From: Candidatus Aminicenantes bacterium
GTDB lineage: Bacteria > Acidobacteriota > Aminicenantia > Aminicenantales > Aminicenantaceae
Direction of reading: 5' to 3'
NCBI GenBank assembly: GCA_016927475.1
Contig: JAFGMO010000018.1
Location: 13,373-77,372 of the forward strand
DNA: 64,000 bases
A model generated the notes under the pieces. The model was given only the letters and a program-made list of their open reading frames with translations, had not been told where the DNA came from and did not search any database. The stretch's first letter is position 1. Each line of letters begins with the position of its first letter. Position numbers and translations under genes: made by a program. Shown here piece by piece: positions 4,156-50,598 of this stretch.

Positions 4156-4364
4156 TGCCAACTCTTGGATGATTTTGGATATTGTTTGGTTTTTCCCTTT
4201 TTTATAGAAATAAGGTTTGTAATCATGATGACTTCCATAACTCCTTGTTTTGTTTTACGTATAATATATAAAAAATATTCCCTTGTGTTAACCCGGATTG
4301 TTCGTGAAGGTTAAACCAGGGACATATTATCCTGAATAATCCAGGATAAGAACCGAGGTGTACC

Positions 4365-16161: not shown

Positions 16162-16404
16162 ATGACTAGAGAGGAAGTTTTCAGCATCATCAAAAAAAAT
16201 ATCTTGGACAATCTTGAAGATATCGAGGAGGACGAGATTGATGGAGGAAAATCGATGAAAGATTATGGGGCGGACAGCCTCGATATTATCGAGGTGGTTT
16301 CCTGCTCCATGCGGGAACTCAAGATAAAAATCCCGAGAGCTGAACTTTCAGATATCAAAACGATAGATGAGTTGACGGATAAATTCATGGAATATATTAA
16401 ATAA
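16162..16404 (+). CDS. acpP: Acyl carrier protein
   Basis: 80 aa; DYGADSLDIIEVV with the phosphopantetheine-attachment Ser in DSL; acidic helix-rich. Confidence 0.8.
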   Translation: MTREEVFSIIKKNILDNLEDIEEDEIDGGKSMKDYGADSLDIIEVVSCSMRELKIKIPRAELSDIKTIDELTDKFMEYIK

Positions 16405-18328: not shown

Positions 18329-19270
18329 TTATAAAGAAGATCCCCTGTCCTCAAGCTTTTCTTGTTCGGGAACGGCTTCCCAGCCGTAGTCGATGTATTC
18401 CCAGTCGAATGTTTGTCCTTTAACCTTAACCAGGACAAAGCCTTCCTCGACACCATGGTAGGGACCGTCCCACCACTCCCCTGATATGGCGCCGCCTGTA
18501 ATAAAAGTGATTCCGGCCGCTGTAATGGCTTCAAGGATATGCAGGTGTCCTTGGAGAACCAGTTTCAGGTTGTGATTCTTGAAAAGGTCGAGAACCTGCT
18601 TTGAATTAACAACGACCAATCCCCTGGGATTGGCTTCCGTGGATCCTTTTCTGATCTGCCTGTCGACGGTAATAAAAGGAATGTGGGTGCTTATAACGAT
18701 GGGAGTTTCCGGCTCGATATTTTGGAGGTCTTCAGCAATCCATTCCAACTGGTCGGTCCCAACCCAACCGATGTACTTACGGTCGTCAGTGGCATCTATG
18801 GAATCAAGCGCCATAAAGTGCCAGTCCTGGTAGTCAAAGGAATAATATCTTTTGCCGATCCTGTTTTCATACATCTTCTTGAAATATTGAGGATGCGAAG
18901 GGTCGACACCGCTGCTTTCGAGTAAGCCGAAAATCTCATGGTTGCCTATTGTGTTCCAGACAGGCATATTGAATCCTTTACTGAGCCGAAGATAGAGATC
19001 GTAGAAGGACATAGCCTGCTCAAAATTCTGTCCTAGAGCGTCACTGATCAGGTCTCCTCCTGTAATGACAAAATCCGGATCAAGTTTGTTGATGAGCGTT
19101 ATGGCTTTTTCGAATCCCTGGGGTGCATTTTTCTCCGGCTGAATATGAATGTCGGTCAGGAAGACGAATGTGAAGTTTTGGTTTTGCCTGTGGCATGAAA
19201 CAACGCCCCACAAAAGCAGAAGGAAAGAGATAAACGCCGTCCACCGCCAAAATCTTTTTTTTCTATTCAT
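18329..19270 (-). CDS. Secreted calcineurin-like metallophosphoesterase
   Basis: Start set at MNRKKRFWRWTAFISFLLLLWG (signal peptide, GGAAGAGG RBS). GD..GNHE..GHLH metallophosphatase motifs: FVFLTDIHI, GGDLISD, GNHEIF, QGHLHILE. Confidence 0.65.
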   Translation of the reverse strand: MNRKKRFWRWTAFISFLLLLWGVVSCHRQNQNFTFVFLTDIHIQPEKNAPQGFEKAITLINKLDPDFVITGGDLISDALGQNFEQAMSFYDLYLRLSKGFNMPVWNTIGNHEIFGLLESSGVDPSHPQYFKKMYENRIGKRYYSFDYQDWHFMALDSIDATDDRKYIGWVGTDQLEWIAEDLQNIEPETPIVISTHIPFITVDRQIRKGSTEANPRGLVVVNSKQVLDLFKNHNLKLVLQGHLHILEAITAAGITFITGGAISGEWWDGPYHGVEEGFVLVKVKGQTFDWEYIDYGWEAVPEQEKLEDRGSSL

Positions 19271-19322: not shown

Positions 19323-20597
19323 TCAGCCTGTGAATCGGGAAATGATAAGGCTGGCGTTTTGTCCACCAAATCCAAAGCTGTTGGATAAAACATTGTTCAC
19401 AGGGAATTCAACCGGCGCCTTGGAAGGGATGTTGAGGTCGATTTCGGGGTCCATTTCGAAAAGATTGATGGAAGGATGGACAATTCCTTTCTGAATGGCC
19501 AGGATTGAGGCAATGGCTTCTGTTCCGCTGGCCGCCCCGATCAGGTGTCCAATCATGGATTTTGTGCTGTGGACATAAATTTGGTCCGTACGTTCTCCAA
19601 AAACTTGCCGGATAGCCCGGCTTTCCGCCACGTCTCCCAGGATGGTCGAAGTGCCGTGGGCATTAATGAGTTCGATGTCTCCCTTGTTGAGCTGAGCGTT
19701 TTGAAGGGCGAGGGCCATCGCCGCTGCGGCGCCTTTTCCTTCCGGATCGGGAGCGACAAGGTCATAGGCATCACAGGACAATCCGAATCCTTTGAGTTCG
19801 GCATAGATGTTGGCGCCTCTTTTTTTTGCGAATTCCAGTTCTTCCAAACAGAGGACTCCTGCTCCCTCGCTGAGAACAAAACCGTCCCGGTCCTTATCGA
19901 AGGGCCGGCTGGCCGTTTCCGGGCTGTCGTTTCTCCGGGAAAGGGCATAGATAATGGAGAATCCGGAGTAGCCGGCTTCATTGAGGACTCCTTCCGTTCC
20001 ACCGCATATCATAACATCGGCTGCGCCTGCTTTGATCAGCACCATGGCGCTTATAATGGCGTGATTGCTTGTGGCGCATGCGGAATTAACGGAAAAATTC
20101 GGTCCCTGAAAATGGAATTCTTTGGCGAAGAAAGCCGGCGGCATGTTGGGTATAACGCCCACGGCATAATAAGGAGAGACGGATTCCATTCCTTGTTTTT
20201 GTATCCTTTTGCACATTTCGAAATGGAGTCCATTTCCTGCATCCCCAGTGCCGATGACGGCTCCGAACCGAAAGGGATTTTTTTCAACCAGGGAAGGCTC
20301 GAGCCCTGCGTCCTTATAAGCCTGGACCGCGGCGACATGGCCGAAAACAATGAACCTGTCGACGCGTTTGAGAAGTTTTTTTGGGAAAAAGTCACCGATA
20401 TTATCCGGAAAGTCGACCTCTCCTCCAATCCTGACATTAAACTCGCTTAAATCCGTATGTTGGGCCGTTCTGACACCTGATTTTCCGGCGGTCAGGTTTT
20501 CCCAAAATTCCTGGACATTGTTTCCTATGGGATTGATCGTTCCCATGCCGGTGACGACAACCCTACGTTCACCGAAATTATTTTTTGTGGATCTCAT
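19323..20597 (-). CDS. fabF: Beta-ketoacyl-ACP synthase II
   Basis: RVVVTGMGTINPIGNNVQEFWENLTAGKSGV; catalytic triad regions SACATSNHAI, NAHGTSTILGD, HSTKSMIGHLIGAAS; C-terminal NSFGFGGQNASL. Confidence 0.85.
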   Translation of the reverse strand: MRSTKNNFGERRVVVTGMGTINPIGNNVQEFWENLTAGKSGVRTAQHTDLSEFNVRIGGEVDFPDNIGDFFPKKLLKRVDRFIVFGHVAAVQAYKDAGLEPSLVEKNPFRFGAVIGTGDAGNGLHFEMCKRIQKQGMESVSPYYAVGVIPNMPPAFFAKEFHFQGPNFSVNSACATSNHAIISAMVLIKAGAADVMICGGTEGVLNEAGYSGFSIIYALSRRNDSPETASRPFDKDRDGFVLSEGAGVLCLEELEFAKKRGANIYAELKGFGLSCDAYDLVAPDPEGKGAAAAMALALQNAQLNKGDIELINAHGTSTILGDVAESRAIRQVFGERTDQIYVHSTKSMIGHLIGAASGTEAIASILAIQKGIVHPSINLFEMDPEIDLNIPSKAPVEFPVNNVLSNSFGFGGQNASLIISRFTG

Positions 20598-20739
20598 TTT
20601 AGCAATTTTTTCCCACGTCCTTAAGCGTTATTTTCTTGGACCTTTTTTGGACTCAACGGACTTTTAATCTTATCAATCAGGAAAAAATTGTCAATGAAAC
20701 GTTGAAAAATTCAGGTAAATCCGGTTTTTTTTCAGCAGG

Positions 20740-21165
20740 TCAGATGAAAATTTCCTTGAAAACAGGATTGGGCCCCATTTTTTTGATGCTTTCGGTGAAT
20801 TCGTTGGTGACTTTTTCGTAACGGGGTGCTTCCGAAGCTGAAACCCACCACAACCCTATGCGTTTTTCATCAAGGCCCAGGGTTTTTAAAATGGTGTCGA
20901 GCATTACATATCTCCGCCTCGTGCTGTAATTGCCTTTTTGGTAATGGCAGTCTCCCGGGTGACAGCCCATCATCATGACGCCGTCAGCACCCTTTAAGTA
21001 GGTTCTCAAAACAAAAAGGGGATCGATTCTACCCGAACACATGACTCTTATGATCCGGATGGAAGGAGGGATGTGCATCCGGGCCGTACCGGCGAGGTCC
21101 GCTCCTGTGTAGGAACACCAATTGCATAAAAAACCGATGATTGTCGGTGTGAAATCTTTATCCAT
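20740..21165 (-). CDS. mvhD: MvhD/FlpD-like hydrogenase-delta-type iron-sulfur subunit (copy 1)
   Basis: IIGFLCNWCSYTGADLAG...VMCSGRIDP...GCHPGDCHY is the MvhD family Cys pattern. Confidence 0.8.
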   Translation of the reverse strand: MDKDFTPTIIGFLCNWCSYTGADLAGTARMHIPPSIRIIRVMCSGRIDPLFVLRTYLKGADGVMMMGCHPGDCHYQKGNYSTRRRYVMLDTILKTLGLDEKRIGLWWVSASEAPRYEKVTNEFTESIKKMGPNPVFKEIFI

Positions 21166-21192
21166 TATAATCGTCCTTTTTTGAAAGAGACT

Positions 21193-22305
21193 TTAATGTT
21201 CTCCAACTTCCTTAAATTCTTCTTCCTTGAATGTACCTGAAGGTACGGGCTCTTCGATGTCTTTTCCAGGAGAATACTGGAATACGTCCTGAAGAGCGGC
21301 TCCGACTTTGGTGAAAACGTCGGCAACCGGAATATTAACCGGGCATACATCGGAGCACATGCCACAGGCAACACAAGAAACAGCCATATGGCTCATTCTG
21401 CCGAGATGATAAAACAGGGTGCCCGGGGGGATCTTAAGTCCGCCCTTGTGTTCCAGTTCGGATTCATAACTTTCAGGTTTATATTCGCAAGTTTTTGAAT
21501 CAAAATCGCAAAGTGTACAGTAACAAATAGGGCAAGCTTCACCACATCCATGACATCCCAAACAAGCCGCGAAAACCCTGGAAAAACCGCTGATCCCGTT
21601 TCCCGTTTTTTCGAAATCCTTAAAGAGTTTTTCCTTGTTTTCTTTCCGTTTGGATTTTAATTTTTCCGTTTCGGAAGATTCGATTTCCGCGGAAATGGTG
21701 TTTCCAGGAGCATCCTTGGCAAAATTTTCACCTTGTTTTGTATTGAGGTAAATAATGCATTCTTTGTCCGCATCTTTTTTCCCAACGGTCAGCACGGTCA
21801 TGTCAGCCAATTGCGGAAGGAAATTATCACAGCTCTGGCATGTTTTCCTAACATCCGGTGAGTTTTCTGCCTTCTTGAGAGATTCGGCGTAGCTGGAAGA
21901 ACGTTTTTTTGCATCCCCGTTGTTCATCGTATCAATAGGGAAAACACCACCGCAGCTCAAACTGATAAGAAGGATATTTTCCAGGCTGCCTTGGGCTCTT
22001 TTAATGAGTTCGACAAAAGCCCTTAATTCACAAGGGCGAAGAACCGCAGCAACAGGGCGTTTGGTTTTTTCAGCTAAAGTAAAATGGGAGAGAATTTTTC
22101 CCGCATTGACGGGCATATGCGGATCCAAAGGAACCGCTCCTTTCAGCTCATCCTTGTTTGTGATTAATGAATATGCAATGTTTCCGTTTTTGTTGAGTTT
22201 CTTGAGAGAAAAAATTCCCTCAACCTTTTCACTGTCTAGGAGGAATTCAAGCAGTTGAAGTAATCCTTCTTCCGTATTTTTATTGATTTTAAGTGCTTTG
22301 GCCAT
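21193..22305 (-). CDS. Iron-sulfur protein with C-terminal 2x[4Fe-4S] module, AsrA/HydB/FrhB-like (paralog A)
   Basis: CLGCHGCGEACPICYCTLCDFD and CVACGMCSDVCPVNIP; C-x2-C-x2-C-x3-C-P-x-C-x-C pattern as in anaerobic sulfite reductase subunit A-type proteins. Assignment tentative. Confidence 0.5.
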   Translation of the reverse strand: MAKALKINKNTEEGLLQLLEFLLDSEKVEGIFSLKKLNKNGNIAYSLITNKDELKGAVPLDPHMPVNAGKILSHFTLAEKTKRPVAAVLRPCELRAFVELIKRAQGSLENILLISLSCGGVFPIDTMNNGDAKKRSSSYAESLKKAENSPDVRKTCQSCDNFLPQLADMTVLTVGKKDADKECIIYLNTKQGENFAKDAPGNTISAEIESSETEKLKSKRKENKEKLFKDFEKTGNGISGFSRVFAACLGCHGCGEACPICYCTLCDFDSKTCEYKPESYESELEHKGGLKIPPGTLFYHLGRMSHMAVSCVACGMCSDVCPVNIPVADVFTKVGAALQDVFQYSPGKDIEEPVPSGTFKEEEFKEVGEH

Positions 22306-22308
22306 TTT

Positions 22309-23547
22309 TTATGCCTTTCCTAATAAACTTTGATCACATTCACATGGGATCTCAACCTCACAGAATTCATCTTTCAAAAAGGACTGCAGCGGCAGCGGTA
22401 CGTTTCTATCGGTTCCCGGAACATACTGAAAACTCTTCTGGGTTTGATCCCCGACCATGGAAAATATCTGGGATACGGGAACGGACATGGGACAGGCATC
22501 TTCGCAAGCCCCGCAGGAAACACAGGATAGAACCATGTGTGACATCCTTCCAAGGTGGAATAACAAAGTGTCTAAAGGAAACCGGAGAGATCCTCTTTCC
22601 TGTGCCCGTTGGAGATAGGTTTCGGGTGAGTTTTCCAGGATTTTTGAGTCAAAATAGCACTGCTGGCAATAGCATACGGGACAGACCCTCATGCAGTTAT
22701 GGCAGTTGATACAAGCATCTAAGGCGGTGGTAAAGTTTTCGATACCGCCGATTTTTTCCTGCCATTCTTTATTGAATGATTCTCTATTTTTTAGAGCCGA
22801 TTGTCGTATTTTTTCACCGGCGGCTTTCCAATATTCCAGCGAATCGTCCTGGGATAGCTCCAGCTTTTCCAGGAGGTCCTTTCCCTTGGAGGTTGAAGCC
22901 GTAAGACAGAGTTTTTTTCCGTTTCCTCCGAAAAAGCCGATGTGAAGGTCAGCGGCGGAATGGTTCTCTGTGTCTGGTGAAGAAGAGGCTTTTGTCTCTT
23001 CGGTTGAAGGTGATGAGAGAAGACTGAAATGTTGGCAGATTTGACAGACAGGCCTTAAAGCTTCGTTTTTGTCCCCTTTTTGTACAATTTTCTCAAAGTT
23101 TTCCTTTGATTTTATCGGGTTGTCCATGTATTCCTTAAGGGGTAGGGCTCCGGGACAATCTATGCTAATAAGATGGATGTGTTCTAATTTAACCTGGTTC
23201 AGTTTATAGAGTTCCACAGCGGCTCGTATTTCGCAGGGCCGCATGAGAGCGCCGATTTTAAGATAAACATCTCCCTGCTTGGTAATACTATCAAGAGCTC
23301 TTCCTCCCTGAACCGTCATAACAGGCGGTAGGGGGTCGGCTGCGTCAAGCAGCGTCTCATCCTCAAGCAGAACCCAGGCGTACGATTCCGTTTCCGGCGC
23401 CTTCATGGGAACCAGAACTGCATCCAAGGTGTTGTTTTTGAGGAGTTTTTTCAATAGCCCTTTTATGGTTTTTCGAAGATCGCCTTCAACGGAAAGAATC
23501 TTTCCTGTCGCGGTTTTCTCTTTTTTTTCCTTACCTGTGGAGTTCAT
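22309..23547 (-). CDS. Iron-sulfur protein, AsrA/HydB/FrhB-like (paralog B of 21193..22305)
   Basis: CINCHNCMRVCPVCYCQQCYFDS and CVSCGACEDACPMSVP. N-terminal domain collinear with paralog A (RPCEIRAAVEL vs RPCELRAFVEL). Confidence 0.5.
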   Translation of the reverse strand: MNSTGKEKKEKTATGKILSVEGDLRKTIKGLLKKLLKNNTLDAVLVPMKAPETESYAWVLLEDETLLDAADPLPPVMTVQGGRALDSITKQGDVYLKIGALMRPCEIRAAVELYKLNQVKLEHIHLISIDCPGALPLKEYMDNPIKSKENFEKIVQKGDKNEALRPVCQICQHFSLLSSPSTEETKASSSPDTENHSAADLHIGFFGGNGKKLCLTASTSKGKDLLEKLELSQDDSLEYWKAAGEKIRQSALKNRESFNKEWQEKIGGIENFTTALDACINCHNCMRVCPVCYCQQCYFDSKILENSPETYLQRAQERGSLRFPLDTLLFHLGRMSHMVLSCVSCGACEDACPMSVPVSQIFSMVGDQTQKSFQYVPGTDRNVPLPLQSFLKDEFCEVEIPCECDQSLLGKA

Positions 23548-23585
23548 TCTTTTCTCCTTTTCTGCTGACTCGTAACTTTTGCATA

Positions 23586-25268
23586 TTAACGCAGGGCTTC
23601 CAGGACTTCTCTGTAGAGTTGGGTATAGGTAAAATGTTTGGAGCGTATGGCTCCTGATGGACAGCTGCCGACACAGCTCCCACAGCCTCTACAGATGGCC
23701 TCGTTGACGACGGATACCCCTTTGTGAGGATCAAAGCTGATCGCCCCGTAAAAACAAACTGAGAGGCAGGTCTGGCATCCTGTGCAGAATTCTTCCCGGA
23801 CTACCGAAACTTTAACCTCGGGTTTGATCTTTTTGCCCGGAATCAAGCTGGAGATGATATTTCCTGCTGTGGCTTGTGCCTGAATGATTGATTCAGGTAT
23901 GTTTTTCGGTCCAAGGGAACATCCGGCTGCGAACACTCCTTCGATGGGGGTGGCGATGGGTTCAAGCATCCCATGGGCTTCTTTGATAAAACCGGTTGGA
24001 TCGAGGGGAAGATTCAGCATTTCGGCAATCTTTTTTGAATCGGCGGACGGAATCATAGCGGGAGAAAGAACGGCCATGTCGACAGAAATTTTTTTTGATT
24101 TTCCGTCGATTTTGTATTCTACAGAAATCTGACCGCCCTCTGCCTTGATGTTGACAATCTCATTTGATCTGAGAAATTTGACTCCCTTCTTTTCAACTTC
24201 TTCGTAATAATCCTGGTCCGCTTTATTGGGAAGACAAAGGTCCCGATAGATCTCCGTTACGTCCACATCCTTGATTTTATCTTTAAGGAAATGGGCATTT
24301 TTAAGGATGTTAAGACAGCATGTTTTGGAGCAGTAACCTTTTTCACTCCGTCCGACACAATGGATAAGGGCGAGGGACCGGGGTGGTTTGCCGTTTTTGA
24401 GAAGGACCTTTTCCGTTTTTATCATCTCTTCCAGTTGAAGAGAGGTTACGACGTTATCAACTTTCCCCAACCCATAGGCAGGATTTTCTTCCGGATTAAA
24501 GAGATCAAATCCTGTGGCGACGACGACAGCTCCCACTTTGATTTCCTGCTCGCCGGCATTTTCCCCTTTTTGTATAACCACCTCAAAATTGCCGAGGAAA
24601 CCCCGGGCGTCCACAACCTGGCTTCCTGTAAAAACTTCGATATGGGCGTTTTTATTCAATGTGTCGATTTTTTCTTGTATAAGTGAAAGAGTGGAACCCT
24701 GATGTGGTAAAAGCCGGGACAGTTTGTTGGCCTTGCCTCCCAGTTCTTCGGATTTTTCGACAATGAAAACCTTCCTATCCTCACCGGCCAAGGAAAGTGC
24801 GGTTTCGATCCCGGAAATACCTCCTCCTATGACGAGAACATCGGTGCAGACTTCCAATTCCTTTTTTGTTAAGGCTTGGTGAAGGGAGACGCGGCTAATT
24901 CCGGCACGGATATATTTGATGGCTTTTTCGGTGGCTGCTTCTTTGTCCGGTATCATCCAGGCACATTGTTCCCTGATATTGACCAATTGAACAAGATAAG
25001 GATTGAGCCCCGCCCGCTCAGCAACGGTCATAAAAGTCTGTTCATGGTCCCGGGGGGAACAGGCGGCGATGACAACATGAGTCAGCTCTTCCTTTCGCAT
25101 TTCGTCTTCAAGGTATTTTTTCCCGTCATTGGAACAAAGAAGGCCAAATCGCTTGGCTACTTTGACATGGGGAAGAGAAGCTATCGCTTCCAAAACTTTG
25201 TCGATATCAATCTTTTCTCCAATGTTGGGCCCGCATTCACAAACATAAACTCCTATATTTCCATTCAT
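23586..25268 (-). CDS. hdrA: Heterodisulfide reductase subunit A-like / QmoB-type flavoprotein (without fused MvhD domain)
   Basis: IGVYVCECGPNIGEKIDIDKV N-terminus; FAD fold VLVIGGGISGIETALSLA...VEKSEELGGK; C-terminal ferredoxin CTGCQTCLSVCFYGAI and CRGCGSCVGSCPSGAI; 560 aa. Confidence 0.8.
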   Translation of the reverse strand: MNGNIGVYVCECGPNIGEKIDIDKVLEAIASLPHVKVAKRFGLLCSNDGKKYLEDEMRKEELTHVVIAACSPRDHEQTFMTVAERAGLNPYLVQLVNIREQCAWMIPDKEAATEKAIKYIRAGISRVSLHQALTKKELEVCTDVLVIGGGISGIETALSLAGEDRKVFIVEKSEELGGKANKLSRLLPHQGSTLSLIQEKIDTLNKNAHIEVFTGSQVVDARGFLGNFEVVIQKGENAGEQEIKVGAVVVATGFDLFNPEENPAYGLGKVDNVVTSLQLEEMIKTEKVLLKNGKPPRSLALIHCVGRSEKGYCSKTCCLNILKNAHFLKDKIKDVDVTEIYRDLCLPNKADQDYYEEVEKKGVKFLRSNEIVNIKAEGGQISVEYKIDGKSKKISVDMAVLSPAMIPSADSKKIAEMLNLPLDPTGFIKEAHGMLEPIATPIEGVFAAGCSLGPKNIPESIIQAQATAGNIISSLIPGKKIKPEVKVSVVREEFCTGCQTCLSVCFYGAISFDPHKGVSVVNEAICRGCGSCVGSCPSGAIRSKHFTYTQLYREVLEALR

Positions 25269-25301
25269 TTTATTTTATCCTCTTCATGATATCGTCCTCT
25301 T

Positions 25302-26576
25302 TTATTGGAGATGCAAAAGGACTTTTCCAACGGCTGCCTCTGCTTGGGCGATGGAGTCAGGAATGTCTTTAGGTCCTTCTGCACATCCCGCGATGAAGAT
25401 GCCTTTTTTTTCAGTTATAACGGGAGAAAGCTGTTGGTTTTGTGTGGCAAAAAAACCGTGTGTGTCCAACCCGACGCCCAGAATTTTTGCTAGAGTTTCC
25501 GTATCTTTTCCAGGAATGAGAGCTGGTGAAAGGATGACCATGTCGGCTTTGATTTTTTGGTCTTGCCCATTTTCTTCGCTGCAGGTGATCTCGATATTCC
25601 CATTCGATTTTCCGACGTGAATTTCATTAAAGCGGATAAAATTTACCCCTTTCTTCCGAGTGCTTTCATAAAAATTTTGATAGGATTTTCCTGGAATGCA
25701 GAGATCCCTGTAGAATTCATGAATTTTTGCATCAGGGGCTTTATGTTTGAGAAATTGAGCGATTTTGGCGGAATACATACAACAAACTCCGGAACAGTAA
25801 CCCAGTTCTTTTCTCCCGATACAATGAATGATTCCAATGGATTTGATGGGTTTATCGTCTCTTAAGACCAATTTGCCTTCAGTGGGCCCGTTTTGGGCAT
25901 AAAGCCTTTCAAATTCCATGGCCGTATAGACATTCGGATATTTCCCGTAGCCGTACTCGTCCAAAGGTTTGACGTCGAACATGTCGAATCCTGTTGTGAC
26001 GATAATGGCTCCAACGTCGATCTTGACCTTCTCATCTTTTTGGGAAAAATCAACGGCATCAAACATACATGCTTCCTGGCATGCTTTGCAGTCTTTCTTT
26101 TTCCCGTTAAGCCGAAGGCAGTTCGCCGGATCGATGGTGGGAACATTCGGCAGAGCTCCCGGGCAGGGAACGGATATGGCTTTTTTCTTTGAGAGGTTTT
26201 CTTCAAATGTGTTGTCGAGTTCAACGGGACAGGGGTCAAAACAGGCATTGCAACCTATGCAGTTTTCAAGGCTGACATAGCGTGCTTTTTTTTCGATTTC
26301 GACCTCATAGCTGTCGCTTTTTTCCTCAACTTTTTTTAACGTACTGAGCAGGGATACTTCAATATCCTCATTTTGGAGGACATCCTGTTGGATGGGAGCT
26401 ACCATACAGGTAGCACACTCCATGTTTGGATAAACCTCTTCAAATTTGATGGTTTGACCGCCGATGAGTGATTCTCTTTCGATCAGATGTACTTTTACTC
26501 CCGCCTGGGCAAGCAAAAGGCTTGCCTTCATTCCGGCTACTCCTGCTCCGACCACCATAACATTATGTTGTTTCAT
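25302..26576 (-). CDS. Short HdrA-like flavoprotein, QmoA-type
   Basis: VMVVGAGVAGMKASLLLAQAG...IERESLIGGQ; ECATCMVAP; inserted ferredoxin CIGCNACFDPCP and CKACQEACMFDAV; 424 aa, QmoA size. Confidence 0.75.
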   Translation of the reverse strand: MKQHNVMVVGAGVAGMKASLLLAQAGVKVHLIERESLIGGQTIKFEEVYPNMECATCMVAPIQQDVLQNEDIEVSLLSTLKKVEEKSDSYEVEIEKKARYVSLENCIGCNACFDPCPVELDNTFEENLSKKKAISVPCPGALPNVPTIDPANCLRLNGKKKDCKACQEACMFDAVDFSQKDEKVKIDVGAIIVTTGFDMFDVKPLDEYGYGKYPNVYTAMEFERLYAQNGPTEGKLVLRDDKPIKSIGIIHCIGRKELGYCSGVCCMYSAKIAQFLKHKAPDAKIHEFYRDLCIPGKSYQNFYESTRKKGVNFIRFNEIHVGKSNGNIEITCSEENGQDQKIKADMVILSPALIPGKDTETLAKILGVGLDTHGFFATQNQQLSPVITEKKGIFIAGCAEGPKDIPDSIAQAEAAVGKVLLHLQ

Positions 26577-26594
26577 TTTTTGTTTTTCCCTTCC

Positions 26595-27020
26595 TCAGAT
26601 TTTGGGATTCTTGTGGATGGGATTAGGACCCATTTTTGTGATTTCGTCGGAGAATTTGTTGACTACTTCTGCGTATCTTTTTCCTTCTGATGCGGAAACC
26701 CAGGATAGTTGAAGCCGGTCGGGTTCAAGCTTCAAAGTTTCCATGATCTTTTTCAGCAGGGCGAATCTTCTTCGGGCGTAATAATTTCCCTGTTCGTAAT
26801 GACAGTCGCCGGGATGGCACCCGGCTATAAGAACACCGTCGGCTCCCCAGAGAAGTGCCGTCAGGACAAGGTTTGAATTTATCCGGCTTGAACACATAAC
26901 ACGTATCACGGATAGATAAGGCTTGACTTCCATTTTGCTTGAACCGGCAAGATCAGCACCTGCATAGGAGCACCAGTTGCACAAAAAGCCCACAATATTC
27001 GGTTTAAAATCGGAACTCAT
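26595..27020 (-). CDS. mvhD: MvhD/FlpD-like iron-sulfur subunit (copy 2)
   Basis: IVGFLCNWCSYAGADLAG...VMCSSRIN...GCHPGDCHY; paralog of 20740..21165. Confidence 0.8.
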   Translation of the reverse strand: MSSDFKPNIVGFLCNWCSYAGADLAGSSKMEVKPYLSVIRVMCSSRINSNLVLTALLWGADGVLIAGCHPGDCHYEQGNYYARRRFALLKKIMETLKLEPDRLQLSWVSASEGKRYAEVVNKFSDEITKMGPNPIHKNPKI

Positions 27021-28091: not shown

Positions 28092-28494
28092 GAAAACACT
28101 TTTAACTAATTAATTATTTAATTATCCGGTTAAGTGGGAAACACTTTATAATACAAATGAAAAAAATTTTCAATGGTTTTTTAATTGTTTTTTAAATTTT
28201 GATTTTATGTTTCATGGTTTTTGGTCTTTCTCCCATGGTTGTTTTGTCTCCCCTGCAAAAGATGTACGCCATCGGACATGGATTGTTTCACAATGAAACA
28301 GATTTTGGTTCCTTTAGGATTTATATGAGAGGATTGTTTCTAAGATTTCTGGTTTTATTATAGGCTTGGAATGGGGAGTACGTTTTTGTGTTGATATTGG
28401 CATATTCATTGCATTTTATTAAACATTTGGAACGGGCCGGGCAAAAAAATAAAATGCGGCTCGTCGTTATCAGACTCGGCCCGTTCTAAGATGT

Positions 28495-28741
28495 ATTATT
28501 CATAAATTTGGCCGATACCGACAGACAATTCCTGGAATATATATCACTAATAGAGATTATCCGGAAACATCGATAATGAAACATCTTCCATATATTATTT
28601 CAAAAAAATATCGGCCAAATTCCCCTAAAGGCGAGCCGATCTTACCGCATCTGCTACGTTGCGGTCTGTTCGCGGTGCCGAGCACAGCTTCACAGACCGA
28701 CGCCTTGCATCTACGGCAAGCTTGGCTCGTGAATAATACAG
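28495..28741. repeat. 247-bp structured intergenic element, copy 1 (short terminal inverted repeat ATTATTCA...TGAATAAT; conserved 3' core)
   Basis: Near-identical 5' ~35 nt and 3' ~110 nt to the copy at 40831..41077; internal long-range inverted repeat AAATTTGGCCGAT / ATCGGCCAAATT. See findings. Confidence 0.6.
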
Positions 28742-28751
28742 CTTGACGTCG

Positions 28752-29636
28752 TTAAAAGAGAGAGACACTAATTCCCACCGTAACCGTCAAAAAGTGGAGC
28801 CAGTTTTTTACGTAACCATCACCTGGTCCTGTTTCATCTTCGCTTGTACCAACGGCTCCTCCCCCAAGGTAACGAATGTTTAAAAATGCTTCAGTGTTTT
28901 TAGGCAAGATAACACCCATTCTGAAACTGGCATCCAATATAGCTCCGACGACTTCATTGTCGCTGCCGTTGATATAACTTATAGGGGCATAAAAACCGTC
29001 AGCTTCAGAGCCGAGCCAGAAACCGCTGTCGAAAACACGCCGCCACCGGAACTTGAGAATGGGAACGGGGCCGATATCCCGGTTGCTTCGAAAAAGAGTG
29101 CCGTCCAGGGATTCAAATTCGATGGTGGCGTTACGTATTTGGAGAGATAGTCCGATCGAAAATTCGTTGTACGGATTACGATTCAGGTCATAGAGATAAC
29201 TCAAACGGTAAAAAGGAAAGTTATAGACAAAACGCATGGGAGTTCCTTGGGGAAAAACAAGTCCGTCTACTTTTATATCCCGTTCTAGGATGTTTTTAGT
29301 CTGAAGGGAAAGGGGCTGGTAGAGGAAGATGAGAGTGTGCCTCGAAGATAATTGGAAATCCAGGCTCATTCTGTTGATAAAAAATAGATTATCCTGAGCG
29401 CCTTCCTTGTGGTAGGGGAAATAAGTTCCATCTTCACTGAATTGGATTCTGTGGGAAACAACGGCTAAATACCCCAGCTCGAGATGTCCTTTGAGCCTAT
29501 AATTATGTTCTGTTTCCGGATAGGCCTGAAGAGGAAAAATCATAGCCAGAGTTAAAATAAAAAAAGCGAACGTTTCAGAACGATGGAAAATATGTTTCAA
29601 ATTTTTTTGTCTGTATTTGTAACGCTTGGTTGCCAT
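28752..29636 (-). CDS. Hypothetical outer-membrane beta-barrel protein
   Basis: N-terminal hydrophobic signal region; alternating amphipathic strands; aromatic C-terminus ...VGISVSLF typical of OM barrels. Confidence 0.4.
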   Translation of the reverse strand: MATKRYKYRQKNLKHIFHRSETFAFFILTLAMIFPLQAYPETEHNYRLKGHLELGYLAVVSHRIQFSEDGTYFPYHKEGAQDNLFFINRMSLDFQLSSRHTLIFLYQPLSLQTKNILERDIKVDGLVFPQGTPMRFVYNFPFYRLSYLYDLNRNPYNEFSIGLSLQIRNATIEFESLDGTLFRSNRDIGPVPILKFRWRRVFDSGFWLGSEADGFYAPISYINGSDNEVVGAILDASFRMGVILPKNTEAFLNIRYLGGGAVGTSEDETGPGDGYVKNWLHFLTVTVGISVSLF

Positions 29637-29802
29637 AGTGACCTCCTCTTTGCATTATTATTTTGTCGATTATTATTAAGTAATAATATAAATATAATAT
29701 AATAATATGAATTTTAATTCAATAAAGAAAATCATAAAAGATTTTGACTTGGAACAAATAAATCCATAAAATTGAGTCGAGAAACATTGCAGGAGGTTTT
29801 AT

Positions 29803-30975: not shown

Positions 30976-31067
30976 ATCCAACGGCCGGAGAAATATAAAA
31001 AGTCAAAATATTTTTCTATCCATACCAAACCTGAATAGTGCAGGTGGACCTGTGTTAGAATAAGCCT

Positions 31068-33978: not shown

Positions 33979-34191
33979 GTTCTTGACTCGTGAATAAAGC
34001 GGGTTAATTGATCCATGAATATAGGGCCGAAAAAAGATTTTGGCAAGCGTTTTTTTTAAGAATTTTCCGGGTGTATCATCGAGGCGTTTTTTTAAGTCAT
34101 GACAAGGGTGCCTGTGTGAAATTGAATGTGTTGAAAATGATGAACACCAGGCATAAAATAAGGGCGCATAAAATTTTCCCGCCAAGGAGAA

Positions 34192-40778: not shown

Positions 40779-40830
40779 CGGCAACGATATGCCGCTTTTT
40801 TGGGTTGTATTCATATCATCTTTAACCTGC

Positions 40831-41077
40831 ATTATTCATAAATTTGGCCGACACCGACAGATAAATTCAATATTATGTATCATTTAATGGTGATTTTGAG
40901 TAAAATTTAAAATGAAACATTTTCCATGACTGTTTTAAAGAAAATGTCGGCCAAATTTACCCTTTGGGCGAGCCGATCTTACCGCCTCTGCTTTGTTGCA
41001 GCCTGTTCGCGGTGCCGAGCACAGCTTCACAGGCTGACGCCTCACATCTGCGGCAAGCTTGACTCGTGAATAATACA
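40831..41077. repeat. 247-bp structured intergenic element, copy 2
   Basis: Same length and orientation as the copy at 28495..28741; conserved ends and 3' core (GCGAGCCGATCTTACCGC...TTCGCGGTGCCGAGCACAGCTTCACAG...CGGCAAGCTTG); divergent central ~80 nt. Confidence 0.6.
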
Positions 41078-41101
41078 GGTTAATACAAAGGGAGGAAAAA
41101 A

Positions 41102-41893
41102 ATGATGAAGAAGAGCCGCAGTGTGTTAACGGGTTTTTTAGGCTGTTTTCTCGTTGGAGTTGTGGCGACAGGAAAGAACGTATCCCAGTCTTCGGATTCG
41201 AATCTATTGATACATCGAATCGCCGAGCGAATGGAACTTTTTCCTGAATATTCCGATTGGGAAGCCTATGTCATCACCCGGATAACAGAGATGGACAAAA
41301 ACTGGAAGCCCAAAAAGAGAACTATCATTCATAAGCGGGTGCGGAGTGTGGGGAATACGAGGTCGGAAGATATTCTCCATGCCGTAGAAACGAAAAAGGA
41401 TGAATCCAAGGATGTGACCGAAAAGTATCGAGAAAGAGCCAGGAAAGCCGAAGAAAAAGCCGCCAGAGAGGAGGATAATAAAGATAAAAACGGCGGCAGT
41501 TTTTCCGTGAACCTTGAGGAACTGTTTCCTTTCAGCGACGATAGAAGGGACCGTTATGACTTCAAACAGGAGAAAGACGACATTTTGGGTGGGGAAAAGG
41601 TTCATGTCTTTTCGGTGAGAGCCAAGGAAAAAACGGAAAAAATGTGGGAAGGGAAGTATTATTTTGATACCGACGATCTTTTGCTTCTTAAATTTGAACT
41701 TTCTCCCGCAAAAACCCCAAGATTCGTTAAAAATGCGGAGATGGCCATGACTTTTGCCGTTGGTCCACAGGGCCATTTTATCTTCAAAACGGTCAAAATG
41801 CTCATCAACGGCGGGATATTCATCAAACATATCAGGATGGTTTACGAGGAGGAATATTCCGAGTTTAACGTCTTGGAACATCGGCCGGACTGA
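41102..41893 (+). CDS. Hypothetical secreted protein, Lys/Glu-rich
   Basis: AAGGGAGG RBS; signal peptide MMKKSRSVLTGFLGCFLVGVVA. Chosen over the antisense ORF 41204..41911. Confidence 0.45.
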   Translation: MMKKSRSVLTGFLGCFLVGVVATGKNVSQSSDSNLLIHRIAERMELFPEYSDWEAYVITRITEMDKNWKPKKRTIIHKRVRSVGNTRSEDILHAVETKKDESKDVTEKYRERARKAEEKAAREEDNKDKNGGSFSVNLEELFPFSDDRRDRYDFKQEKDDILGGEKVHVFSVRAKEKTEKMWEGKYYFDTDDLLLLKFELSPAKTPRFVKNAEMAMTFAVGPQGHFIFKTVKMLINGGIFIKHIRMVYEEEYSEFNVLEHRPD

Positions 41894-41920: not shown

Positions 41921-44023
41921 TCACAGGAAGACCATAATCCACAGCAGAAGGATAATCAGGCCTACCAGAAGCCAGCTTCCTCCGAATCCCAGCAAGTCCA
42001 GACGTGTCGGCTTCATAAATTCCCAGTTGGAGCGGGGAAAGAGCTTGTTTTGTTTGTATCGCTCAGGATGTTGGTAGGCCTCAGCCAGCGTTTTTTTATC
42101 TTCGTCTTCCGTCCTCTGAACGGGCGTGTTCATCTTGGTGAAAAAACGGTCCAAGTGTTCCTTGGGAGCCGGGCGGGTTACGAGGGAGAATATAAATAGA
42201 AGAAAGAAGGGGAAAAAAGCGTCAAAGAAAAACCTTGCTGCAACAAGCTGAGCTTTGCTGAAATGTGAAAAATCGATTCCCAGCCAGTTCAAAACCCAGA
42301 TTTCGGCATGAAAGCGACCGAATCCTGCTTTGGGCGAATCGGGATTTTTGGGATCCAGGCTGGCTACATTCTCAAAAAAAATGCCTGTCGGTGGAATGAT
42401 ATGGGCTTTTTTGATGCTCTGACCGACATGATCGGCCAGGCCGTTTTTGACGTCTTCAGCCAGAGCTCCGGTGGTGATGACGACTGATTTCGGCTGTGTT
42501 TCTTGAAGAAAGGCCGGATGATGCCTGGCCCAGTTCATAGCCTGGAAGAGATTGGGGATGAGAGCATAGATGATCAAACAGATAATAATCTGGATAATAA
42601 CCGCGGCTTTGGACAGTCGTCTCCAGATAAAACCAAGCCAGATGGAGGCGCCGTAAATGGCCGGAATGGAGATGATGTATTTGAAAAGTTCCAACAAGTT
42701 GTTGATAAAAAGGGCCACGACGATCCCGCCAAGGAGTGTGATTCCGATAATGATGCGTCCAACAAACAGATAATGTTTTTCCGAACGGCCGGGAAGGAAA
42801 GGTTCATAGAGATTTCTGATGAAGAGGGCCGAGTAGGAAACCGATCCCGCGTCGAGGGTTGACATGTTGGCGGCCAGGATGCCGACCAGCATAAGCCCGA
42901 TTGCTCCGGGAAAAAGAAGGTCCTTGGTCATAAATCCCCAAATTAAGTCGGGATCGTGTATCTTTCTGAAATATAGGCCTATGGCCAGAAGCCCCGCCAG
43001 GGCCCAGAAAATCATGATAAATCGTTTGAAAAACATACCGGCGATCATTCCGAACCGGGCTGTGTTCTCATCCTTGGCTGATCCGGCCGTCTGCATCCCC
43101 GATGAGACGGCGATAATGGAGACTAGGTTGGCCATAACCATAGCCAGGATGGTGTACCAGGCGTATTCACTCATGGTCACCGAACCGAAAAGCTCGAACA
43201 TGTAATCCGGAACCGAAGCGTGGAGTCCGCTGAAGCCGCCGATTTTATGCAGACCGATAGGGATCAAAATCAAAGAAAAAGTGATGATCAGCATGCCCTG
43301 AATGGCGTCGGTGATGGCCGCGGCCCTGAAACCTCCCATCATGGTGTAAATCCCCACGATAACGGCATAGATAAAATAGAAAAAAACGGGGTTGGTGTGT
43401 GATATAAAGGAACGCAGCTCGCCTTTTTTATTCTTTTCATTGAGGATGGTAAACCGGGTTTCTTCTTCAGGACTGAGCCCTGTACGCCGGCTGCGCAAAT
43501 CTTGAAATTCCCTGAACTGCTCAACACTTAGCTTTTCTTCATAGGAGTATTGGTCTGGAGATTTGGGAGTCATGGCCACCATGGTTTTTGCCGCCACCAT
43601 ATAGCCCACTCCTCCGCCCAGCAGGGATAGAAGCAGAGTGAAAACAGCGTAGCTTCCTCCCAGGAATTTACTGCGAAATCTTTCCGTAAAATAGTCACCG
43701 ATAGTGGTCAAACGAACGCGGCGGAAAAAAAACGTCGAGAACCAATAGAAAGGTGTTAAAAAAAGAACCAGATACTGGATCCACATGCCGCCGATGCCCT
43801 GACGATAGATCTCCCGGGATACGGCTACGGCTTGATCTGCATTGGTCGAGCAGCCGAAATTCAGGAAAAATTGGGTGAATTTACCCAGTTTGCGTCCGGC
43901 AAGGAAAAAATCACCGGTATCTTTTGTTTTGCCTGCCGCCTTTTTGCCCAGCCAGAGGATGACCAGGATATAAATTAAAATGATGCCGATATCGAGTATG
44001 TGCAGTCCCCAGATATACATCAC
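41921..44023 (-). CDS. Sodium:solute symporter (SSS) family transporter with extended loops
   Basis: N-terminal ...DFFLAGRKLG SSS signature, then 13 or more hydrophobic helices; 700 aa. Confidence 0.7.
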   Translation of the reverse strand: MMYIWGLHILDIGIILIYILVILWLGKKAAGKTKDTGDFFLAGRKLGKFTQFFLNFGCSTNADQAVAVSREIYRQGIGGMWIQYLVLFLTPFYWFSTFFFRRVRLTTIGDYFTERFRSKFLGGSYAVFTLLLSLLGGGVGYMVAAKTMVAMTPKSPDQYSYEEKLSVEQFREFQDLRSRRTGLSPEEETRFTILNEKNKKGELRSFISHTNPVFFYFIYAVIVGIYTMMGGFRAAAITDAIQGMLIITFSLILIPIGLHKIGGFSGLHASVPDYMFELFGSVTMSEYAWYTILAMVMANLVSIIAVSSGMQTAGSAKDENTARFGMIAGMFFKRFIMIFWALAGLLAIGLYFRKIHDPDLIWGFMTKDLLFPGAIGLMLVGILAANMSTLDAGSVSYSALFIRNLYEPFLPGRSEKHYLFVGRIIIGITLLGGIVVALFINNLLELFKYIISIPAIYGASIWLGFIWRRLSKAAVIIQIIICLIIYALIPNLFQAMNWARHHPAFLQETQPKSVVITTGALAEDVKNGLADHVGQSIKKAHIIPPTGIFFENVASLDPKNPDSPKAGFGRFHAEIWVLNWLGIDFSHFSKAQLVAARFFFDAFFPFFLLFIFSLVTRPAPKEHLDRFFTKMNTPVQRTEDEDKKTLAEAYQHPERYKQNKLFPRSNWEFMKPTRLDLLGFGGSWLLVGLIILLLWIMVFL

Positions 44024-44085
44024 TTTTCCGGACTATGTTTTTACACAGGAAATCGGAGGAAGTCAACCGGGACGGAATTGAAGTT

Positions 44086-44281
44086 CCCCCAATTTTTTAA
44101 GTTTTCTTGGAAACATCAGTGGCATCATATATGGAGGGGTCCTGTCACGGCTCTTCCCCATCCTCGCTGTCGCTCCGGGTGGGGAGCCCCTTCGCCGCGC
44201 CACCCCTTTTTTCTCATCGAGAGCCCCCTTCATCTTGCCCTGCTTCTGTGCATGTGATGAAAACTTAAAAAATTGGGGTTG
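44086..44281. repeat. 20-bp perfect inverted repeat pair (CCCCAATTTTTTAAGTTTTC / GAAAACTTAAAAAATTGGGG) bracketing a GC-rich ~150-bp segment
   Basis: Read directly from the sequence; the inside is GC-rich (GGCTCTTCCCCATCC...GGGTGGGGAGCCCC local hairpin) in an otherwise AT-rich 450-bp intergenic region. Confidence 0.5.
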
Positions 44282-50547: not shown

Positions 50548-50598
50548 TAGAGGGTTTCACATGAATAATGCGGGAAACATGAAAAGGGATAAGACAGG

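Follow-up and report, generated by a model that had tools for sequence, protein, structure and literature searches.

The window analysed here, a stretch of 64,000 nucleotides of Candidatus Aminicenantes DNA, contains two similar intergenic repeats, which raises the question of whether such repeats are genes for a structured RNA or copies of a mobile element. An earlier note on this DNA placed them in either a structured ncRNA family or a MITE-like fold-back element. We propose that they are probably copies of a structured MITE of ~255 bp that is moved in trans by a transposase of the IS630/Tc1-mariner type and is subject to constraint at the RNA level. The MITE-like half of the earlier proposal is borne out by terminal inverted repeats (TIRs), TA flanks, an empty site, a relic, an extra copy and assembly breaks, but a new RNA family is not established, given that there are two full copies and that structured MITEs with compensatory changes have already been described. 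Bacterial MITEs are defined by TIRs, a flanking direct repeat, a length under about 400 bp, the lack of a transposase gene, dispersed copies with presence/absence variation among relatives, and an autonomous IS, in that genome or a related one, whose inverted repeats match (PMC3184786, PMC2229807). The repeats in question have TIRs and TA flanks, are 255 and 256 nt long, carry no transposase gene, occur in several copies and are absent at both loci in a relative.

Two repeats in the same orientation, with conserved ends and a conserved core, are indeed present, with an alignment identity of 85–88% (85% across the span first delimited, 28495–28741 against 40831–41078, and 88% once the alignment is extended). 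The equal length of 247 bp originally assigned to them holds for the span of copy 1 but not for copy 2, where a 1-nt indel gives 248 nt between the landmarks. Likewise, the short terminal inverted repeat ATTATTCA/TGAATAAT is present but was drawn too short, as the element reaches six bases beyond it on each side. From the TA-bounded inverted repeats, the true limits are 28489–28743 for copy 1 (255 nt) and 40825–41080 for copy 2 (256 nt), the structured sense being the minus strand in both. The central ~80 nt, previously held to be unrelated between the copies, turned out to be diverged yet partly alignable (e.g., AATGAAACATYTTCCAT). The window has exactly two occurrences each of a 24-nt invariant block (TTCGCGGTGCCGAGCACAGCTTCA) and of the 21-nt left end, against 0 expected by chance from shuffles. 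The sole ORF of the element, of 56 aa in copy 1, is broken in copy 2.

Each copy is enclosed by 14-bp TIRs. In copy 1, the left TIR is AGATGTATTATTCA (28489–28502, plus strand), with the partner TGAATAATACAGCT at 28730–28743; in copy 2, it is ACCTGCATTATTCA (40825–40838, plus strand), with the partner TGAATAATACAGGT at 41067–41080. There is one mismatch per copy in the resulting pairs, AGATGTATTATTCA / AGCTGTATTATTCA in copy 1 and ACCTGCATTATTCA / ACCTGTATTATTCA in copy 2. Immediately outside the TIRs, copy 2 has TA on both sides (40823–40824 and 41081–41082), and copy 1 has TA on the left (28487–28488) and TG, one transition from TA, on the right (28744–28745).

The same arrangement recurs when each terminus is read outward from the motif TGAATAAW, through six variable bases, to the dinucleotide that follows. 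The left and right termini of copy 1 read ACATCT-TA and ACAGCT-TG, and those of copy 2 read GCAGGT-TA and ACAGGT-TA; three further termini, described below, read GCGGGT-TA (a relic, at 33991), CCAGGA-TA (a mini-palindrome, at 4333) and GCAAGC-TA (a copy beyond the window). The terminal motif thus has 7 occurrences where 0.48 are expected, and TA lies exactly 14 nt out at six of the seven termini, the seventh being TG; with a TA frequency of 0.04–0.07, this has a probability of about 1e-6 to 4e-8. It is this constant offset of TA that defines the 14-bp TIRs and the TA duplication. A duplication of 2 bp is weak evidence for any one copy but is consistent across differing flanking contexts. Target-site duplications, together with a cognate transposase elsewhere, had been named in the earlier note as pointing to a plain MITE, and the TA at six of seven termini shifts the interpretation towards one. 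A TTAA or other 4-bp duplication, tried as an alternative, fits copy 2 and fails copy 1.

The end motifs that a cognate transposase would match are ACCTGYATTATTCA...TGAATAATRCAGGT. In their outer 5 nt, the inverted repeats differ from copy to copy but match within a copy (AGATG/AGCTG, ACCTG/ACCTG, TCCTG/TCCTG); inverted-repeat ends that vary between copies are unusual where a DDE transposase recognises the ends.

Both loci lack the element in the nearest relative, which, among 5.8 billion proteins, shows only 65–69% protein identity. At the locus of copy 1, this relative (L032) keeps the gene order TusA-DsrE-ArsR-296aa-400aa-RlmN, and the proteins encoded upstream of the element position (294 aa in the window, 296 aa in L032) both end in ISVSLF*. 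The intergenic DNA of L032 aligns with the window up to 28487 and lacks about 255 nt exactly there. From a conserved GTTC to the stop codon, there are 9 nt in L032 vs 265 nt in the window, and the predicted empty site, obtained by removing 255 nt and one TA, has 8 nt. At the locus of copy 2, the relative (L029) has 5'-nucleotidase and SSF transporter genes that converge directly and overlap, with no element between them. The 263-aa gene to the right of copy 2 (41102–41893), which has weak DUF5686 similarity, is also absent at the syntenic position (L029 4483–4624).

The empty site of the relative (L032 1421–1436) reads TCATGCAGGTTA. Within it, ATGCAGGTTAA is the reverse complement of the left junction of copy 2 (TTAACCTGCAT), a match that the simple TA-insertion model leaves unexplained and that may reflect a target-site preference, an old excision footprint or coincidence. 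Insertion into the centre of an older palindrome (CTG^CAG) was considered and rejected, because it would require two additional indels at the locus of copy 1; the TA model, by contrast, gives the right empty-site length. A cassette consisting of a gene plus the element was also rejected: the neighbouring 294-aa and 263-aa genes show no relationship to each other, and the 296-aa gene is present in the relative, where the element is missing.

Full copies of the family number at least two; a further copy lies just beyond the window, and there are also decayed remnants. A solo right end (33982–34006, plus strand) consists of a 23-nt end (33982–34004, CTTGACTCGTGAATAAAGCGGGT) followed by TA; with one more flanking base (33982–34008), 24 of 27 positions are identical to the right end and flank of copy 2, TA included. 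This relic lies 3 nt upstream of the start codon of an MFS gene (33978, minus strand). A mini-palindrome at 4328–4348, TA-TCCTG-AATAAT-CCAGGA-TA, overlaps a weak covariance-model match (4308–4349) and resembles a pair of TIR tips fused together, the interior having been lost; an internally deleted copy, an excision footprint and a chance occurrence are all conceivable. Two other sites resemble parts of the element. Upstream of rlmN (31032–31060), TGAATAGTGCAGGT-GG-ACCTGTGTTAG combines a right-end-like motif with a left-tip-like ACCTGT, the two together forming the palindrome CAGGTGGACCTG, which may be another decayed remnant or an unrelated hairpin. At 50562–50573, there is a one-mismatch match to the terminal motif that is not flanked by TA.

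The copy beyond the window was found in a Logan contig (L031), which extends the sequence by 149 nt; the last 33 nt of this contig belong to a further, inverted copy, whose start lies 118 nt beyond the window end. This copy sits at the TA of the stop codon of a MaoC-dehydratase gene (L031 3673–3675, window-equivalent about 64116–64118), and its first base is the G that completes the TAG stop; the insertion may have changed the original C-terminus of MaoC. Logan contigs, an independent assembly of the same sample, also end inside the element at 28712, 28686 and 40850. The break at 28712 is exactly 30 nt from the conserved end, within a 30-mer that is not in copy 2, which implies at least one more close copy. 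As a sign of repetition or mobility, the breaks are supportive only, because the same assembly also breaks in the promoter region between the divergent 294-aa and 390-aa genes (29647–29677), where the DNA is of low complexity and extremely rich in AT. No further full copy was detected by blastn, nhmmer or the covariance model of hairpin A (described below) in the window and all the loci of relatives.

Database searches gave no sign of a relationship to known elements or RNAs. In agreement with the earlier note, no transposase, RT or integrase is nearby: Pfam scans of 50 ORFs across the window (all but three short ORFs of 80–85 aa at 16162–16404, 18579–18833 and 44000–44257) revealed none, nor any Y1_Tnp, RAYT or TnpB. 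The statement that the element matches no known RNA family also stands, as a search of the whole window against Rfam at the gathering score gave no match, and relaxing the E-value around both copies brought up noise only (E of 0.04 or more, with scores well short of gathering). The conserved core, translated in six frames and concatenated, has no homologue among 5.8 billion proteins, blastn against plasmids and phages gave no match, and there is no trace of the element in genomes totalling 596 Gb or in the metagenome collection. An exact 20-mer from the invariant loop was found in 10 stretches of genome contigs, 13 of metagenome contigs and 0 of viral contigs; these were rejected as other copies and attributed to chance, because all extend for only 20–22 nt and have no neighbouring conserved block. 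A 17-mer from the left end gave 4 chance matches in viral contigs. An integron attC site, a retron, domain V of a group II intron, a bridge RNA and an ωRNA were each considered as well and rejected, since integrase, RT, recombinase and TnpB are all lacking, the core-site motifs do not match, and the TIRs and TA flanks are contrary to these assignments.

The element folds best when read from the minus strand. The minimum free energies (MFE) of the two copies, with RNA parameters, are -95.6 and -84.9 kcal/mol on this strand vs -72.0 and -73.7 kcal/mol on the strand for which the structure had first been written, an advantage of 11–24 kcal/mol, and both strands fold far better than shuffles (z from -4.5 to -6.4). 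With DNA energy parameters, the strands are equal (-48.5 vs -47.1 kcal/mol) and the asymmetry is gone. The asymmetry therefore stems from G·U pairs, which matter in RNA, and this favours constraint on a minus-sense transcript over constraint on a single-stranded DNA intermediate.

In the predicted consensus fold, the inverted repeats pair as a closing stem, and the interior forms two long independent hairpins, A and B, and a mini-hairpin of 3 bp. Hairpin A (28632–28729, minus strand; 40969–41066 in copy 2) is a long irregular stem with the tip GUGC-UCG-GCAC and includes a 30-nt block that is invariant between the copies; its covariance model (R1) scores 154–155 bits on the minus strand vs 34–45 bits on the plus strand. 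The mini-hairpin at the junction is CCU-UUA-GGG in copy 1 (28623–28631, minus strand) and CCC-AAA-GGG in copy 2 (40960–40968). Hairpin B (28504–28622, minus strand; 40840–40958 in copy 2) has a 15-bp conserved base, AAUUUGGCCGAUA/UAUCGGCCAAAUU, and a diverged distal part.

The differences between the copies follow this structure. All 164 cells of the 82 consensus pairs are paired on the minus strand, 16 of them as G·U; in the mirrored plus-strand structure, the same count appears as 16 C·A mismatches with no G·U. Every one-sided stem substitution (10/10) is a transition that keeps the pair on the minus strand and breaks it on the plus strand. The three compensatory pairs reported earlier are all real, one being a T:A to C:G change at the base of the GGCCGA stem and the other two lying in CGGTCTG/CAGACCG vs CAGCCTG/CAGGCTG, and there are more of them, such as a G:C to C:G change in the TIR tip. 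Altogether six pairs show double changes; with one of these (10:270) in flanking DNA and another in the poorly aligned distal part of hairpin B, four are solid, namely the three reported earlier and the one in the TIR tip. In a non-circular test, where the structure was predicted from one copy alone and the substitutions of the other copy were scored against random placement, none of 5000 simulations broke as few minus-strand pairs as observed. The claim of selection on secondary structure is thus supported more strongly than before, by the simulations and by the G·U pattern, but for the strand opposite to the one originally written. On these sequence statistics, a predicted strand-specific fold is shown to be preserved between the copies, the stem substitutions on the minus strand being either compensatory or G·U-neutral, and we infer that the constraint acts on RNA read in the minus-strand sense.

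The surroundings of both copies are ordinary chromosomal genes. Copy 1 lies between the stop codon of the 294-aa gene (28752–28754) and a conserved hairpin (28431–28487); the genes on either side, the 294-aa gene and arsR-dsrE-tusA, are all encoded by the minus strand, so that its structured sense is that of the 294-aa gene upstream on that strand. Copy 2 has the terminator of the 5'-nucleotidase gene (40779–40794 plus a T-run) on one side and the ribosome-binding site of the 263-aa gene on the other; both genes are on the plus strand, and the structured sense is antisense to both. The opposite orientations of the element relative to its neighbours argue against a cis-regulatory leader. The copy in L031 resembles copy 1 in having the sense of the upstream gene, the structured sense starting 0 nt from the stop codon in the former and 8 nt in the latter. 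This placement directly after the upstream stop codon suggests that both would be transcribed as a 3' tail with a very stable structure; given the antisense position of copy 2, co-transcription in the structured sense is not general.

Several features of these neighbourhoods are of separate interest. The hairpin that adjoins copy 1 (about 57 nt, GAACGGGCCG...CGGCCCGTTC, 28431–28487, minus strand) has a counterpart in the distant relative (L032 1370–1425), where it is kept with a compensatory change (GAACAGGC/GCCTGTTC) and an almost unchanged loop (AAAATGCGGCTCGTCGT), the remaining intergenic DNA around it being only 59% identical. It may serve the 294-aa gene as a terminator or 3' structure, or else be part of the leader of the arsR-dsrE-tusA operon. 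Upstream of these sulfur-relay genes, the region 19323–27020 contains two tandem paralogous clusters, each with a gene for FlpD (methyl-viologen-reducing hydrogenase delta; 20740–21165 and 26595–27020) beside genes for Hdr-like FAD/4Fe-4S oxidoreductases.

A mobile origin is compatible with a function of the RNA in the host. The minus-sense transcript of ~255 nt could be a functional three-way-junction RNA, in which the apical module of hairpin A is invariant and the distal hairpin B varies, that is spread by transposition and used by the host as a portable 3'-UTR module or a trans-acting sRNA. We regard this as a tentative and rather unlikely reading; if it is true, the strand-specific purifying selection between the copies would reflect a host-level function.

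It appears improbable that the repeats are stand-alone structured ncRNA genes, duplicated and non-mobile, that produce a three-way junction of ~255 nt from the minus strand with its own cellular function. The strand-specific G·U pattern and the compensatory changes, the 30-nt invariant apical block of hairpin A and the very stable fold (z about -6) are all consistent with such genes, which in view of the empty Rfam search would be new. The 14-bp TIRs with TA at six of seven ends, the truncated solo end and the collapsed palindrome, and the absence from both loci in the nearest relative speak against them, as do the occurrence in both orientations relative to neighbouring genes, with one copy beginning inside a stop codon, and the lack of any trace in 596 Gb of genomes or the metagenome collection. 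Moreover, consensus promoter and terminator scans for a minus-strand transcript revealed nothing convincing.

Equally doubtful is the opposite view, that the repeats are decaying palindromes free of structural selection, in which paired changes arise by intra-hairpin templated repair, gene conversion between the arms, or the existence of two master-copy subfamilies. Only two full copies are available, and the relics show that copies do decay. Under random placement, 1.5–1.8 double changes are expected per comparison, with a maximum of 7, vs 5–6 observed, and in a shuffle control the observed values were attained 7 times in 500, covariation statistics being weak with two sequences only. What this explanation does not account for is the strandedness of the pattern, because a strand-symmetric correction of arms cannot produce G·U at 13 stem positions (16 cells) of the minus strand while leaving the plus strand free of it. 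All ten one-sided transitions stay paired on the minus strand, for which about (1/2)^10 would be expected, and paired columns have changed less (22/164) than unpaired ones (34/99).

Finally, movement as single-stranded DNA by an HUH (Y1) transposase, as in IS200/IS605-derived PATEs and RAYT-mobilised REPINs, with the fold serving as the transposition substrate, is highly improbable: a fold preserved on one strand only, insertions adjoining hairpins and stop codons, and an empty site in the relative that resembles the element junction, as when one guide sequence recognises both target and end, would suit it, but the strands fold equally with DNA parameters (-48.5 vs -47.1), G·T offers no advantage in DNA, and the window encodes no Y1 transposase or TnpB. 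PATEs and REPINs have no TIRs and no target duplication, carry short subterminal hairpins (20–30 nt in the IS200/IS605 family), move as ssDNA and are associated with a Y1 transposase. The element shares with them a small size, lack of coding capacity, strong hairpin formation and strand-specific structure, but it has TIRs and TA flanks, hairpins of ~100 nt and no Y1_Tnp or RAYT in the window, and its strand asymmetry appears only with RNA energy parameters.

For the structured MITE that we favour, the closest described analogue is bcr1 of the Bacillus cereus group (the Group A bcr repeat), a mobile, transcribed repeat that folds into two stem-loops in a cruciform-like arrangement and has compensatory changes (PMC3184786). 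Both are small, non-autonomous interspersed repeats with two independent predicted RNA stem-loops closed by the ends, structure-keeping compensatory changes, short flanking direct repeats and a distribution that is not conserved between relatives (PMC3184786). They differ in that bcr1 is ~155 bp long with 5-bp direct repeats whereas the Aminicenantes element is ~255 bp long with TA flanks; there is no sequence similarity between them, and bcr1 belongs to Firmicutes. Transcription has been demonstrated for bcr1 and is a prediction for the present element.

ERIC and Correia (NEMIS) elements, of Enterobacteria and Neisseria, respectively, are also intergenic MITEs with TIRs, a TA motif at the ends and long RNA stem-loops (PMC2229807). 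They are co-transcribed with neighbouring genes and alter transcript stability via RNase E or RNase III; the arrangement of ERIC is similar to that of the present element as a 3' tail, and Correia transcripts form stem-loops as well (PMC2229807). A similar disposition is seen here, in that two of the three copies retaining both flanking genes come directly after the stop codon of the upstream gene and share its sense. ERIC and Correia are, however, single hairpins of 100–155 bp, in contrast to a three-way junction of 255 nt, and in the present element no IHF site or outward promoter was recognised and the effect on mRNA is inferred. TA target-site duplication together with TIRs links the element to the IS630/Tc1/mariner group, of which TA duplication is a hallmark (PMC7325037); unlike members of that group, it has no transposase gene, and the outer 5 nt of its inverted repeats vary between copies.

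On this reading, a DDE transposase of the IS630/Tc1-mariner type, which duplicates TA and whose gene would lie elsewhere in the genome, would move the structured MITE in trans by cut-and-paste into intergenic TA sites. The minus-sense RNA of copy 1 and of the copy in L031 would form the 3' untranslated tail of the upstream gene. Such a tail would most likely act as a stable 3' stem-loop or as an RNase target that alters mRNA stability, as in ERIC, Correia and bcr1.

To our knowledge, mobile elements have barely been described in Aminicenantes, an uncultivated lineage. The element adds a clearly delimited MITE family for this group; it is a known kind of bacterial repeat and no new class of system, and its interest would be modest unless the RNA has a host function. 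It explains why assemblies of the host organism break at these spots, and its strand-specific G·U signature provides a clean example of RNA-level constraint on a mobile repeat.
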